From Planctomycetota bacterium (GTDB taxonomy: Bacteria > Planctomycetota > UBA8742 > UBA2392), in contig JADZFR010000022.1 of the NCBI GenBank assembly GCA_020849795.1, positions 62,879-126,878 of the forward strand: 64,000 nucleotides of DNA, given 5' to 3'. Below, in pieces: positions 57,121-61,416 of this stretch (within the stretch, counting starts at the first letter, position 1; the number at the start of each line of letters is the position of its first letter). The translations under genes were made by a program, and so were the position numbers. Under the pieces are notes generated by a model. That model made no database searches and was not told the origin of the DNA. It saw only the letters and a list, made by a program, of their open reading frames with translations.

Positions 57121-57726
57121 TTACTTTGACTTGTCTTCTTCCAGGTCCTCGCCCAGCTCGCGGGCGATGTCGCGATCCAGTTCTTCGCGACTCTTCTTCT
57201 TTCGGTCATCCGTTGATACGCCGATCATCTGGTCGATCTCGGCGTCCGTGACCAGCGTTTCGCCCGTGGCGCTGTCGGCTTCAAACAGGCTTTCCTTCGT
57301 CATGTCCAGAAACAGATCCATACGCTGGCCCATGGTCTCGGCCTGCATCATGGCGTGCTCGAAGTTGCGTTGCGTGCTCTCCAGGTCGGTCGTTTTGTAG
57401 ATCTCGTTGATGCTCTTGCTGACGACACCCATGCTTTCGGCGAACACGGCAAAGCTCTCTGCCTGGTTCTTCATCTGGTAGGCGGCTTCAATCGTCAACA
57501 TCTGCCGCTCAAGCATGCGGCGCTGAGCCGTTGTGGCCTTCAGCGACTTGCGAATGAAAGCAAGCTGGTCGTTTGCGCCCATGCGCCCGGCCTTGCGCGC
57601 CTTTTCAAGCCACTCTTCCTCGGATTTGTTGAGTTCGCGCACCTGACGCTTCATGCGCTGGATGCCCTTCTTGATCTCCATGTCGCGCGCGATGCGACGC
57701 TCTTCTTTGCTTTTGAAGATTCCCAT
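57121..57726 (-). CDS. ESCRT-III family protein (CHMP2/Vps24/Snf7-like), paralogue C
   Basis: ATG 57726 is preceded by AGGAGA. N-terminus MGIFKSK. The helical-hairpin region AGRMGANDQLAFIRKSLKATTAQRRMLERQMLTIEAAYQMKNQAESFAVFAESMGVVSKSINEIYKTTDLESTQRNFEHAMMQAETMGQRMDLFLDM aligns by eye to CHMP2A (AKQGQMDAVRIMAKDLVRTRRY...MAQAMKGVTKAMGTMNRQLKLPQIQKIMMEFERQAEIMDMKEEMMND). Acidic tail with ELDRDIARELGEDL. Confidence 0.7.
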   Translation of the reverse strand: MGIFKSKEERRIARDMEIKKGIQRMKRQVRELNKSEEEWLEKARKAGRMGANDQLAFIRKSLKATTAQRRMLERQMLTIEAAYQMKNQAESFAVFAESMGVVSKSINEIYKTTDLESTQRNFEHAMMQAETMGQRMDLFLDMTKESLFEADSATGETLVTDAEIDQMIGVSTDDRKKKSREELDRDIARELGEDLEEDKSK

Positions 57727-57743
57727 GGGTCTCCTATGAGCGG

Positions 57744-57776
57744 CAATGATCAATGTTCAACGCTCAATGATCAATG
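57744..57776. repeat. Exact 12-bp direct repeat caatgatcaatg x2, 21-bp period, immediately upstream of ESCRT-III paralogue C
   Basis: Copies at 57744-57755 and 57765-57776 are identical, with spacer ttcaacgct. They lie 18-50 nt upstream of ATG 57726 (minus strand). Confidence 0.8.
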
Positions 57777-57850
57777 GCAAGTACCCGGATTTGGCGATCA
57801 CTAGCCTGTTGCGGACCTTTGACAACAAATCATGGAACATGGCCGCGCGA

Positions 57851-58660
57851 TCACTCCACCACGTGGTAGTTCGCCTCGCCTGCAGCCACTCGCTTGCGTG
57901 TATGGGCGGTCATGCGCGCCGATTTGCGCTGCGCGGCCTCGATAAACTCGCGCGCGGCGCGCAGCTTGCGCTTGCCAAGGTACGCGCAGAGAAAGCGGGC
58001 CTTGTCGGTGGCGGTGACCGCACCGGGCGCCGAGTGCAGCAGTGCGGCAACATCTTTCACCCGCCAGCGATGCGTCACGCGCTTGCGAATGTCCGCGCGA
58101 TTGAGGTCGGTCACAAACAGGCGGTCGTCTGCGCCCACCAATATGTGAACCAGGTAGAAGTCGCGATGGTTGACACCGCCGTCGTGCATGGTGCGCAGGA
58201 TGCGTCCCAACTGCGCCGCGATGCGCTGCCGCCGCGCCGGTGAAATTTCAGTCGTGCGCAGCAGCGCCTGCAGATTTGTGGCGGCCGGTAAGCCGACCGT
58301 AACCAGCGCCGCCCGAAGCACCCGGGCGCCGTCGCGTTCTTCGATGCACGCAGCCGGTTGCGGGGCGTCGATTCCCAGCTTGTACAAACGTCGCAGGACC
58401 GCCCACTCGCGCTGCACTGGTGAATCAAACTGCTCGGCGAACAATCCGCTCCAGAACGGGTCCGGAGCAGGCTGTTTGTAGCGCTTGATAAAGTAGGACT
58501 TGCCGGTGGGGGACTCCATGCGCAGTGTCTGGCGCTCGGCAAGCTTGGCCTTTACCACGCTCAAGTCGCGTCGCAGGAAGATCGCGTCCAGCGAAAGCAG
58601 GTCCAGCGCCTCAAGTTCAGGCCGCAACGAATCTTCTACCAGTAGTCGTGTCTCAGTCAT
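57851..58660 (-). CDS. Lipopolysaccharide-kinase (Kdo/WaaP/InaA) family protein kinase-fold protein
   Basis: YFIKRY, REWAVLRRL..LGI, catalytic-loop-like GGVNHRDFYLVHILV, FVTDLNR, RWRVKDVAALL. This is the PF06293-type pattern. Confidence 0.75.
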   Translation of the reverse strand: MTETRLLVEDSLRPELEALDLLSLDAIFLRRDLSVVKAKLAERQTLRMESPTGKSYFIKRYKQPAPDPFWSGLFAEQFDSPVQREWAVLRRLYKLGIDAPQPAACIEERDGARVLRAALVTVGLPAATNLQALLRTTEISPARRQRIAAQLGRILRTMHDGGVNHRDFYLVHILVGADDRLFVTDLNRADIRKRVTHRWRVKDVAALLHSAPGAVTATDKARFLCAYLGKRKLRAAREFIEAAQRKSARMTAHTRKRVAAGEANYHVVE

Positions 58661-59923: not shown

Positions 59924-59994
59924 GACGTACTCAAAAGGTCAGCATTCAGAGGTCGGGTGACAGAAAGGCACGGGCGTTGCGCGGGACCCTTGGT

Positions 59995-60612
59995 TCAAAC
60001 TGCCCCTTCCTCGGATTCGAGCTTGTGTTTCAGCTCGGCTTCGGTTTTCAGGGCTTCGTCAAAGTTGCCTGCTTCTTCGGCTTCGTTGATCGTGTCGATC
60101 TCGGACAAGAAGCGCTCTTTCTCAGGGTCCTGGTCCTCAAACTCGCCGTCAATCTCCAGCCCGATGTCTTCCAGCGTGGCATTCAGCTCATCCATGTACG
60201 CCTGCTCGTCGATCTGTTGCAGCGCGAGCTTGGCATCCAAGCCGCTTGTGCGAATGCGTTGCAGGAGTTTGTTCACGCCGTCTTTGTCTTTGCGTTTTTC
60301 CAGTCGCTCGAGGCCGCGGATGTACTTCTTGAGGGCAATGCCCTCGAGGTTGCTGACTTTGGCAGTGCGGCGGCTGAACGCGAAATCGTACTTGATCGCC
60401 TTGAGTTCTTCCCAGAGGTAGTCGACCTCGATCTGGTTGCCCTCGCGGCGAGCGGCCTTGATCTGCTCAATCAAGGTGCCCTGTTTGGCAGAACTCTTGC
60501 GCAGCTCCATGAAGTACTTGCGGCGGTCGCGTTCAACCTCGCGCAGTTTCACCTTCAACTTGCGCAGGTCGATCCGCCCGCCGAACAACATGCTGAAAAA
60601 GTTCTGTGGCAT
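59995..60612 (-). CDS. ESCRT-III superfamily protein (Snf7-like), paralogue B
   Basis: ATG 60612 is preceded by GGAGGG. N-terminus MPQNFFSMLFGG. About 150 aa of basic helical hairpin, then an acidic C-terminal third (DIGLEIDGEFEDQDPEKERFLSEID...EAELKHKLESEE). Confidence 0.65.
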   Translation of the reverse strand: MPQNFFSMLFGGRIDLRKLKVKLREVERDRRKYFMELRKSSAKQGTLIEQIKAARREGNQIEVDYLWEELKAIKYDFAFSRRTAKVSNLEGIALKKYIRGLERLEKRKDKDGVNKLLQRIRTSGLDAKLALQQIDEQAYMDELNATLEDIGLEIDGEFEDQDPEKERFLSEIDTINEAEEAGNFDEALKTEAELKHKLESEEGAV

Positions 60613-60735
60613 TGACCCTCCGGACTTCGTGCGGGGCTTCTACCCCGACTGACCTTTGCCGCATGCCGCTTACAGTGTGTGGTCTGAATGCCCTGCTGTG
60701 TGCTACGAACCTTGCCCGCGTGTGTAACAGCGTCG

Positions 60736-61416
60736 CTACTCAAGCTCTGGTTTCTGTTTCATCTGCTTTTCGTCGTGTTTCGAAGCTTCCTTGCGTTCAT
60801 GCTCGGCTTGCATCAACTCCGCCTCGATGTCCGCCAGTTCCTTGTCCATGTCTGGCTTTTCTGCCCGCGGCTTCTCTCCAAGAATCTCCTTCTCCAGCGT
60901 GCGCAGTTCTTCTTTGTCCTTGGCGGTCAGCACGTCTTCGCGGCTTTGCGTCACGCCTTCGCCGGCGTGCACGGCTTCGCGGTACTTTTCCATGCCTTCT
61001 TCGAAATCGAGCATCACGCGCTCAACCACCGACTGCTCAATCCCCCGAAGGTCCATGGCCTCCATGGCCTGGATTTTGCCCACCAGGTTCAGGTGCAGTT
61101 CGATGTTCTTGTTCAGGATGTCGGCCTTGAGCTTCAGGCTTTCCATTTGCGTTCGCGTGCGCTTGATCTGCAGCAGCACAAACTCTTTCTCGCGGTCGCC
61201 GACGCGTCCGGACTTGATGTTCTCGATGCTGGCGCGCTCAGACAATTCCAGCCGCGCCAGCTCTTGCCTTGTTTTGCGCAGTTCGACCTCGTTCTGGGTG
61301 ATCAGGTCGTCGAGATGCTCGAGCATCTCGCGTGTGCTGTGGGCATCGCGAATCACCTGCTCGGCTTCGCCGGCTTGGCCCTTGATCATGTTTTTGATGC
61401 GGTCGAGCAGGCTCAT
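60736..61416 (-). CDS. ESCRT-III superfamily protein (Snf7/PspA-like), paralogue A
   Basis: N-terminal amphipathic MSLLDRIKNMIKG (PspA/Snf7 helix-0-like). Long hairpin (REKEFVLLQIKRTRTQMESLKLKADILNKNIELHLNLVGKIQAMEAMDLRG). Charged tail ELADIEAELMQ. The start overlaps the upstream stop (TGATG). Confidence 0.55.
   Translation of the reverse strand: MSLLDRIKNMIKGQAGEAEQVIRDAHSTREMLEHLDDLITQNEVELRKTRQELARLELSERASIENIKSGRVGDREKEFVLLQIKRTRTQMESLKLKADILNKNIELHLNLVGKIQAMEAMDLRGIEQSVVERVMLDFEEGMEKYREAVHAGEGVTQSREDVLTAKDKEELRTLEKEILGEKPRAEKPDMDKELADIEAELMQAEHERKEASKHDEKQMKQKPELE

Follow-up and report, generated by a model that had tools for sequence, protein, structure and literature searches.

Introduction

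The pairing of ESCRT-III proteins with the AAA ATPase Vps4 for membrane cutting is described by recent reviews as confined to archaea and eukaryotes. No clear Vps4 homologue is recognized in bacteria (PMC7615534, PMC7619361), in which proteins of the PspA type are usually present in single copy (PMC7615534) and for which membrane repair is regarded as both the original and the customary function of the superfamily (PMC7619361). The occurrence of several paralogues together with a MIT-AAA ATPase marks the scission systems of archaea and eukaryotes (PMC10936438). Here, an operon from a Planctomycetota bacterium is described that, judging from its sequence, probably encodes a bacterial membrane-remodelling machine of the ESCRT-III/Vps4 type. 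The operon lies in a stretch of 64,000 nucleotides of GenBank assembly GCA_020849795.1 (contig JADZFR010000022.1, positions 62,879 to 126,878), referred to below as the window. It contains genes for a Snf7-family protein (protein C), a very probable divergent paralogue (protein B), a possible further one (protein A) and a Vps4-like ATPase, headed by the gene of a new family (hyp258).

Related genes have been reported from bacteria in other arrangements. VPS4-like ATPases have been transferred to bacteria, including Planctomycetes, where snf7 has been displaced by a gene encoding TPR and six transmembrane segments (TPR-6TM), and scattered bacterial Snf7 genes have been noted, accompanied either by PspA or by an ATPase with two AAA domains (PMC11237479). 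A full-text literature search, whose reach into subscription papers is incomplete, returned no earlier description of a bacterial operon combining Snf7 with a MIT-AAA ATPase.

Gene layout of the operon

Six consecutive open reading frames (ORFs) were found on the minus strand between 57121 and 62192. In the order of transcription, they encode hyp258 (61416..62192; 258 amino acids (aa) from MLERAT..., the mechanical ORF reaching 62306), protein A (60736..61416; 226 aa, N-terminus MSLLDRIKNMIKG...), protein B (59995..60612; 205 aa, N-terminus MPQNFFSMLFGG...), the Vps4-like ATPase (58685..59923; 412 aa), a Kdo/WaaP-family kinase (57851..58660; 269 aa) and protein C (57121..57726; 201 aa from a conserved ATG, beginning MGIFKSK..., the mechanical ORF extending to a TTG at 57753). 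The stop codon of hyp258 and the start codon of A overlap by one base. Because the gene upstream of hyp258, an ABC transporter-like ORF of 628 aa identified by eye, is divergently transcribed, the operon begins at hyp258. A promoter and terminator scan revealed neither a minus-strand terminator-like site within the operon nor a sigma-70-like promoter.

The initial annotation had read A, B and C as three divergent ESCRT-III paralogues, and all three ORFs lie on the minus strand where it placed them, with the lengths and N-termini that it quoted. Its remark that they are too divergent to be recent duplicates was borne out by pairwise BLASTP, in which they show no detectable similarity (best E 0.72 to 6.4). 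Sequence conservation indicates that all three are true genes and not chance ORFs in GC-rich DNA, since homologues are numerous and conserved over their full length (376 for C, 112 for B and 73 for A). Nearly all named homologues come from metagenome-assembled genomes (MAGs) labelled "Planctomycetes/Planctomycetota bacterium".

Protein C, a member of the Snf7/ESCRT-III family

Sequence comparison places protein C in the Snf7/ESCRT-III family. Pfam Snf7 (PF03357) was matched by 21 of the 26 C-family members, with a best E of 6.5e-8, and the same model is precomputed on many C homologues. When C was compared by phmmer with the sequences of the PDB, the only matches were to CHMP3 (3frt, 3frv, 2gd5 and 7zcg_A; E 0.005-0.015), and the alignment was collinear across the alpha1-alpha4 core, with residues 15-148 of C facing 16-153 of CHMP3. 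A profile made from the 26 C-family sequences matched only CHMP2A (7zcg_B; E 0.029), over 18-147 against 15-144. Among solved structures, C is, by sequence, closest to CHMP2/CHMP3.

The Vps4-like ATPase

The ATPase sequence has the domain order of Vps4, namely a MIT-like domain, a linker, one AAA cassette and a Vps4_C helix. The N-terminal domain (N-domain) is a MIT-like three-helix unit (residues 1 to ~75; 59699-59923) and is followed by a Pro/Ala-rich linker. The single cassette is of the classic AAA type (Pfam AAA, 1.9e-34), with Walker A GPPGTGKT, Walker B DE and the pore loop SKYFGES. Pfam Vps4_C was detected in 24 of the 27 ATPase orthologues (best E 2.7e-6); the window ATPase itself is under the cut-off (0.033).

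A profile built from 24 N-domains (~77 residues) was found to align over three helices (4-73) to the MIT domain of VPS4B/SKD1 with E 6.5e-4 to 3.7e-3. The MIT structures matched were 1wr0 (6.5e-4), 2cpt (1.4e-3), 4u7y and 2jqh, together with MITD1, chitin synthase 1 and VPS4A. TPR matches outrank MIT for this profile but span one helix pair only, repeatedly. Pfam MIT was matched by six of the 24 N-domains (best E 0.004), and the N-domain of the window ATPase alone had no Pfam match. The MIT-like character that the initial annotation had ascribed to the neighbouring ATPase is upheld by the VPS4 MIT matches of the N-domain profile and by the Vps4_C matches of the orthologues.

The second region of homology (SRH) of the ATPase reads AVMSRFEKQILIPLPD. 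Residues 286-296 contain AVMSRFEKQ, in which R290 is the sole arginine and does not vary among the 27 orthologues. The SRH resembles the Vps4 signature, RRRFEKRIYIPLPD, and is without the "PG" of the Cdc48/PAN type, but only one arginine is kept.

Protein B, a very probable divergent paralogue

Profile-profile comparison makes it very probable that protein B belongs, as a divergent member, to the Snf7/ESCRT-III superfamily. With hhalign, B (49 sequences) was aligned to an enlarged C/Snf7-type profile (128 sequences) with Prob 80.7%, P 1.3e-5 and a score of 42.1, and the alignment was near full-length, covering 4-213 against 12-223. Controls with reversed alignments, which preserve composition and coiled-coil periodicity, scored 14-15. 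The C alignment used in this comparison had been enlarged by 100 representative sequences found when 1.84 billion proteins were searched. Early hhalign runs on low-diversity alignments were weak, and the runs became informative after divergent orthologues from related loci and the representatives had been added.

The two families are joined by an intermediate sequence, since one protein matches the hidden Markov models (HMMs) of both. This protein, g193 (193 aa; 12316-12897 of the related locus L081), matches the C-family HMM with 2.5e-16 and the B-family HMM with 1.6e-6. The B HMM was also observed to pick up a small number of C-family representatives, with E 3e-4 to 5e-3. The AlphaFold2 model of B (pLDDT 81, pTM 0.67) predicts a hairpin of 41- and 47-residue helices, followed by shorter helices. 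A Foldseek search of the PDB with this model lists CHMP3, Vipp1, CdvB, Loki CHMP4-7, Snf7 and CHMP1B, all with E of at least 0.48.

Protein A and hyp258

Membership of protein A in the ESCRT-III superfamily is possible, on the basis of profile comparison and structure prediction. The AlphaFold2 model of A (pLDDT 76) contains helices at 3-11, 17-24, 28-68, 74-124, 129-152, 165-178 and 190-219. The predicted arrangement, with a short amphipathic N-terminal helix, a hairpin of 41 and 51 residues and three more helices, has an ESCRT-III-like helix order. CdvB2 (E 0.13, prob 0.90) and Vipp1 stand at the top of the Foldseek list of this model, and none of its matches is significant. Alignment of the A family to the B family with hhalign gave 45%, P 2e-4 and a score of 34.3, against cross-family reversed controls of at most 20.1. 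Matches of A and B to EXO84, LGE1, a spike HR1 mimic and TRPM5 among the PDB sequences were dismissed as coiled-coil noise.

The first gene of the operon, hyp258, was found by jackhmmer directly upstream of A in 58 of the 80 related loci examined. The protein had no significant match in Pfam or in a PDB profile search, and a match to the coiled coil of TSG101 (E 1.1) was dismissed as noise. A, B and hyp258 are protein families that present Pfam models do not recognize. By eye, the last ~70 residues of hyp258 appear to form a helix-turn-helix and a GG-containing beta-hairpin (...VGGxxILKRxR), which together are winged-helix-like; such a putative winged helix would recall the winged-helix parts of ESCRT-II and CdvB.

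N- and C-terminal regions

The distribution of charge in C and B runs from a basic N-terminal half (net charge +9 in C and +10 in B) to an acidic C-terminal half (-12 and -16). In A, the corresponding values are 0 and -12, so that only the acidic-tail half of the ESCRT-III charge plan is seen. The acidic C-terminal regions pointed out by the initial annotation are thus a property of all three proteins, and these halves hold conserved short helices. In B, the C-terminal acidic helical hairpin is strongly conserved (DPEKxxFLxEIDxINxAExxG...) and is predicted at pLDDT 88-96.

The N-termini differ among the three proteins. That of C, MG(I/L)FKS, is invariant, with M1, F4, K5 and S6 unchanged across the family alignment. 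The N-terminus of B is hydrophobic, not amphipathic, with the consensus MGFFxxLF, and the N-terminal 11-mer of A has the highest amphipathic moment within that protein.

The tails had been likened to MIM1 motifs in the initial annotation, and the strings cited, ELADIEAELMQ in A, EAELKHKLESE in B and EELDRDIARELGEDL in C, are all present. The comparison holds for C in a loose form. A loose MIM1-like pattern, [DE]xxΦxxxΦxxΦ within the last 45 residues, was found in 23 of 28 C tails, compared with a mean of 3.5 and a maximum of 9 in shuffled tails.

Conservation and spread of the operon

In a survey of one genome per GTDB species, 262 genomes were found to encode a C relative, and the best 80 loci were examined. 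A Planctomycetota or subgroup label is carried by 72 of these 80, and all related genomes are MAGs. The order hyp258-A-B-ATPase-C was recovered by tblastn and jackhmmer in most of them, and A consistently adjoins B-type genes. The sequences indicate that C, B, the ATPase, A and hyp258 are inherited jointly as an operon throughout a large Planctomycetota clade without cultured members. The kinase gene is restricted to the close clade (L001-L016 and L024); in distant loci, the ATPase abuts C directly. The kinase (Pfam Kdo, 4e-28; NCBIfam RfaP, 4.9e-32) may serve as a regulator specific to this lineage, or its gene may have been inserted without relation to the operon.

The composition of the operon varies. 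In one clade, the order A-B-C is followed by an ATPase of a second class. ATPases of this second class are encoded downstream of C in more than one other Planctomycetota clade (L025 9140-10267; L059 9169-10293; L028 8756-9910; L057 8640-9734). This class has ~33% identity to the window ATPase, an RPGRFD-type SRH, a SKWVGE pore loop and a MIT-like N-domain, without a lid insertion, and it occurs together with the first class in at least two loci (L025 and L059). Compared with class 2, class-1 orthologues have ~25 extra residues immediately preceding the C-terminal helix (columns 385-410 of alignment A4). This short segment lies where Vps4 has its beta domain, the insertion of the lid domain that binds Vta1/LIP5, and may be a counterpart of it. 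In another clade, four ESCRT-III-like genes stand before and after the ATPase, namely an A-type gene, two B-family paralogues and C (L025 4692-6716; L053 4066-6071; L036, L039, L054, L059, L067 and L078); the number of paralogues therefore differs by lineage.

The C-family profile reached 506 clusters at 50% identity (E <=1e-3) in the search of 1.84 billion proteins. Some of the proteins found are fusions, in which an N-terminal Snf7-like domain (~190 aa) precedes either FtsK_alpha and FtsK_SpoIIIE or a RuvB-like AAA+ with a RuvB_C winged helix (P0379, P0422 (L081 8001-9863), P0450, P0452 and P0454; P0413, P0441 and P0447 (L082 8001-9668)). One RuvB-like fusion is annotated to a Bacillota MAG (MCL2630377.1). 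In L081, L082 and L084, which are other bacterial contigs, Snf7-like genes adjoin AAA genes whose N-termini match the Planctomycetota MIT-like HMM with E 2.5e-9 to 8.5e-12. Genes for Band_7_1 (SPFH-related) proteins were seen in or beside Snf7-like clusters of such contigs (L081 10513-11268; L083 6443-7060), and in L083 the cluster comes after PadR, HAAS and DUF4097 stress-module genes.

Genomic neighbourhood

The proteins of the window also include MurD, two GroEL, HflX, a sigma-54 activator and a phosphomannomutase, and its GC content is even (0.59-0.65). The adjacency of murD was set aside as a clue to division, being confined to the close clade. Both GroEL paralogues are full-length and lie ~400 bp apart, at 9086-10714 (+) and 11092-12699 (+). 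A 1069-aa protein (4219-7428, -) partly resembles the S-layer glycoprotein family of anammox Kustd1514, with an E of 3.4e-18 and a score that falls well short of the cut-off, which hints that the lineage is perhaps related to Brocadiia-type Planctomycetota. No tRNA or tmRNA gene was found in the window.

Comparison with described systems

The operon resembles the Cdv system (CdvB and CdvC) and the Asgard and eukaryotic ESCRT-III and Vps4 systems (CHMP proteins or Vps2-24-20-32 with Vps4) in that divergent paralogues stand beside a MIT-AAA ATPase with Vps4_C. As in those systems, there are subunits with a basic core and an acidic tail, one of the tails is MIM1-like, and C aligns to CHMP3 and CHMP2A. 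Unlike those systems, the operon is housed in a bacterium that has genes for peptidoglycan and of the lipopolysaccharide type, the locus has the new first-gene family hyp258, A and B fall outside Pfam Snf7, and the close clade includes the Kdo/WaaP kinase. CdvA has no counterpart by Pfam, since no PRC-barrel match was obtained in the operon proteins, and recognisable ESCRT-I or ESCRT-II genes were not found.

The operon shares with PspA, Vipp1 (IM30) and LiaH a bacterial host, helical-hairpin proteins, a predicted N-terminal membrane-binding helix and a high rank of Vipp1 in the Foldseek lists. It differs from them in having several paralogues, not one, and no PspA_IM30 match in Pfam. The partner ATPase also differs from that of PspA, being a MIT-type classic AAA protein and not the sigma-54 activator PspF.

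Two other bacterial arrangements can be compared. The VPS4-like TPR+6TM operons (Opitutus ACB74714.1; PMC11237479) likewise have a MIT and AAA ATPase in bacteria, with Planctomycetes among the hosts. In contrast to those operons, the present ATPase is flanked by Snf7-type genes and the operon is without a TPR-6TM gene; the sole nearby TPR-like ORF (51975-53570) is on the opposite strand, 3.5 kb beyond C, and is not kept with the operon in distant loci. The Snf7 proteins of Deltaproteobacteria, Bacteroidetes and OGG56892.1, some of which have coiled-coil genes and an AAA+ ATPase nearby, are also similar, but their ATPases are described as containing a pair of AAA domains, of which the N-terminal one is inactive, and their Snf7 proteins as membrane-anchored (PMC11237479). 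Here, the ATPase is a single-cassette MIT-AAA protein and the subunits are of a soluble type of ~200 aa.

Alternative explanations

Several observations weigh against an ESCRT-III/Vps4-type machine; they bear on its separate parts and are taken here together with the explanations that they touch. The first of these explanations is that the ESCRT-III content of the operon is smaller: only C and probably B would belong to the superfamily, and A and hyp258 would be unrelated partners, such as a coiled-coil adaptor, a membrane-targeting factor or a CdvA/ESCRT-II-like part. Hyp258 has no recognisable domain. For A, neither Snf7 nor PspA_IM30 is among the Pfam families listed for its members, searches of PDB sequences (phmmer and hmmsearch, including an expanded profile) returned no ESCRT-III or PspA chain, hhalign of A against C stayed at background level, and the N-terminal half is not basic. 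The hhalign link of A to B also drops to 3% with smaller alignments and default settings. However, the predicted helix lengths and order of A fit the ESCRT-III plan, its Foldseek list is headed by CdvB2 and Vipp1, its score against B lies above all cross-family reversed controls, and it is always adjacent to B-type genes. The smaller content is accordingly a possible, though doubtful, account of the operon.

The assignments of B and C are open to objections of the same kind. Against Pfam Snf7, for which the gathering score is 27.3, the C protein of the window reaches 13.9 bits (E 0.042), so that the membership of C rests on its family and not on the lone sequence. Neither Snf7 nor PspA_IM30 is among the top 25 of the 37 Pfam families listed for 38 B-family members at E <=1; the window B has no match to either in Pfam, and NCBIfam gave nothing relevant for A or B. 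Searches of PDB sequences with B by phmmer and hmmsearch returned coiled-coil noise only, with no ESCRT-III, PspA or Vipp1. The Foldseek matches of the A and B models all have E of at least 0.13 and TM-scores of at most 0.44, and designed helical bundles rank beside the ESCRT-III matches. Since none of these matches is significant, the fold argument is qualitative only. In the tails, the loose MIM1-like pattern has no more than chance frequency for A, with 1 of 25, and for B, with 6 of 49, and the strict consensus (D/E)xxLxxRLxxL(K/R) occurs in none of the tails of the A, B and C families.

The shared ESCRT-III architecture proposed in the initial annotation is therefore secured in part: profile similarity was found for C, through Pfam Snf7, and very probably for B, through hhalign, whereas the links of A are weak. 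Structural similarity to CdvB2, Vipp1, CHMP3 and others appears in the Foldseek lists of A and B below significance, and the proposed MIM likeness of the tails is retained by C, in loose spacing, and lost for A and B.

A second explanation is a PspA/Vipp1-like coat for envelope stress or membrane repair, the assembly of which is controlled by the AAA ATPase and which would be no scission or division machine. Reviews regard repair as what the superfamily originally and ordinarily does in bacteria (PMC7619361), the distant Snf7-like gene of L083 neighbours Band_7_1 and stress modules of the PadR, HAAS and DUF4097 types, and Vipp1 structures rank high in the Foldseek lists of A and B. On the other side, PspA_IM30 is not among the Pfam families listed for any A, B or C member. 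C aligns to CHMP2/CHMP3, with no PspA or Vipp1 chain appearing in its PDB sequence searches. The combination of paralogues with a MIT-AAA ATPase is the archaeal and eukaryotic scission signature (PMC10936438), and the Snf7-FtsK fusions point toward division sites. Such a coat is judged to be a tenable but not a probable reading of the whole operon.

For the ATPase, the objections concern its subfamily. Classic AAA proteins and Vps4 have two arginine fingers, and the Vps4 motif is RRRFEK; the SRFEK of this ATPase has one arginine only. The NCBIfam CdvC model matches over residues 104-407 with 7.4e-44 and 150 bits, far under its equivalog cut-off of 650; higher scores were given by the models for CDC48 (173 bits) and PAN (163 bits). 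The architecture is therefore called Vps4-like, and orthology to Vps4 is not claimed. On a third explanation, the ATPase would be a generic unfoldase or a part of an anti-phage or quality-control system, with the coiled-coil proteins as its substrates or as unrelated neighbours. The top overall AAA scores of CDC48 and PAN would agree with this, as would the matches of the AAA domain to the PADLOC IetA and TRIP13 and NCBIfam IteA models. These matches span only the generic AAA cassette, however, and the partner genes of those systems are absent; a defence system was rejected because PADLOC gave generic AAA and kinase-fold matches only and no partner genes. The MIT-like N-domain and the Vps4_C helix are specific features, and the linkage of the ATPase to Snf7-type genes persists in distant loci and in other bacterial contigs. 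This explanation is thus highly improbable.

Mis-binning or mis-assembly of archaeal or eukaryotic DNA into a bacterial MAG hardly deserves consideration: the related genomes are exclusively MAGs, but the operon shares its evenly composed 64-kb window with MurD, GroEL, HflX and the sigma-54 activator, and the same flanking genes (AHSA1, MurD, PEGA-like and USP) recur in ~20 independent assemblies, with contigs of 4.1, 3.1 and 2.5 Mb among them and a near-identical operon copy on the 4.1-Mb contig.

Proposed mechanism and implications

An ESCRT-III/Vps4-type machine encoded by this operon would work as follows. C, B and probably A would attach to the inner membrane from its cytoplasmic side, through their basic N-terminal cores and their conserved N-terminal motifs, and the bound subunits would co-polymerise there. 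The acidic C-terminal regions would hold the monomers soluble, by analogy with known ESCRT-III proteins. The MIM1-like terminal helix of C, and possibly the C-terminal hairpin of B, would dock onto the MIT domain and so bring in the hexameric ATPase. Using ATP, the ATPase would then pull subunits out by way of its pore loop (SKYFGES); the polymer would be remodelled or disassembled, and a membrane neck constricted or cut. The assignment of nucleator and co-polymer roles among the paralogues, as put forward in the initial annotation, is at present a matter of inference.

Where in the cell such a machine would act can be suggested only tentatively. A role at division or abscission necks is the leading single candidate, though by itself not likely, and membrane repair and the formation of vesicles or invaginations are alternatives; a PspA-like repair role is as conceivable as the division role. 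The Snf7-FtsK fusions hint at division sites. Described Planctomycetota are generally without FtsZ (PMC6952346), which would fit a division role. More ambitious, and rather unlikely, is the possibility that a complete bacterial scission system of the ESCRT type serves cytokinesis or abscission in a Planctomycetota lineage that is large and has not been cultured. The system may comprise as many as four ESCRT-III-like paralogues and one or two MIT-AAA ATPases, together with a new partner encoded by the first gene.

In the conserved bacterial operon, a MIT-AAA ATPase is joined to a gene of the Snf7 family and to one or more additional ESCRT-III-like paralogues, and the probable ESCRT-III/Vps4-type system found here is a variant in an unexpected domain of life. 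If the proteins act as their sequences suggest, bacteria would have ATP-driven ESCRT-III remodelling. A Planctomycetota lineage would thereby gain a definite candidate for the machinery of membrane scission or division, and there would be new material for dating the origin of Vps4 and of the Snf7 branch or tracing their horizontal spread. Should a complete scission system be borne out, then together with the Snf7-FtsK relatives it would extend division modules of the ESCRT-III/Vps4 type beyond archaea and eukaryotes, and the question of where Vps4 and the Snf7 branch originated would be reopened.

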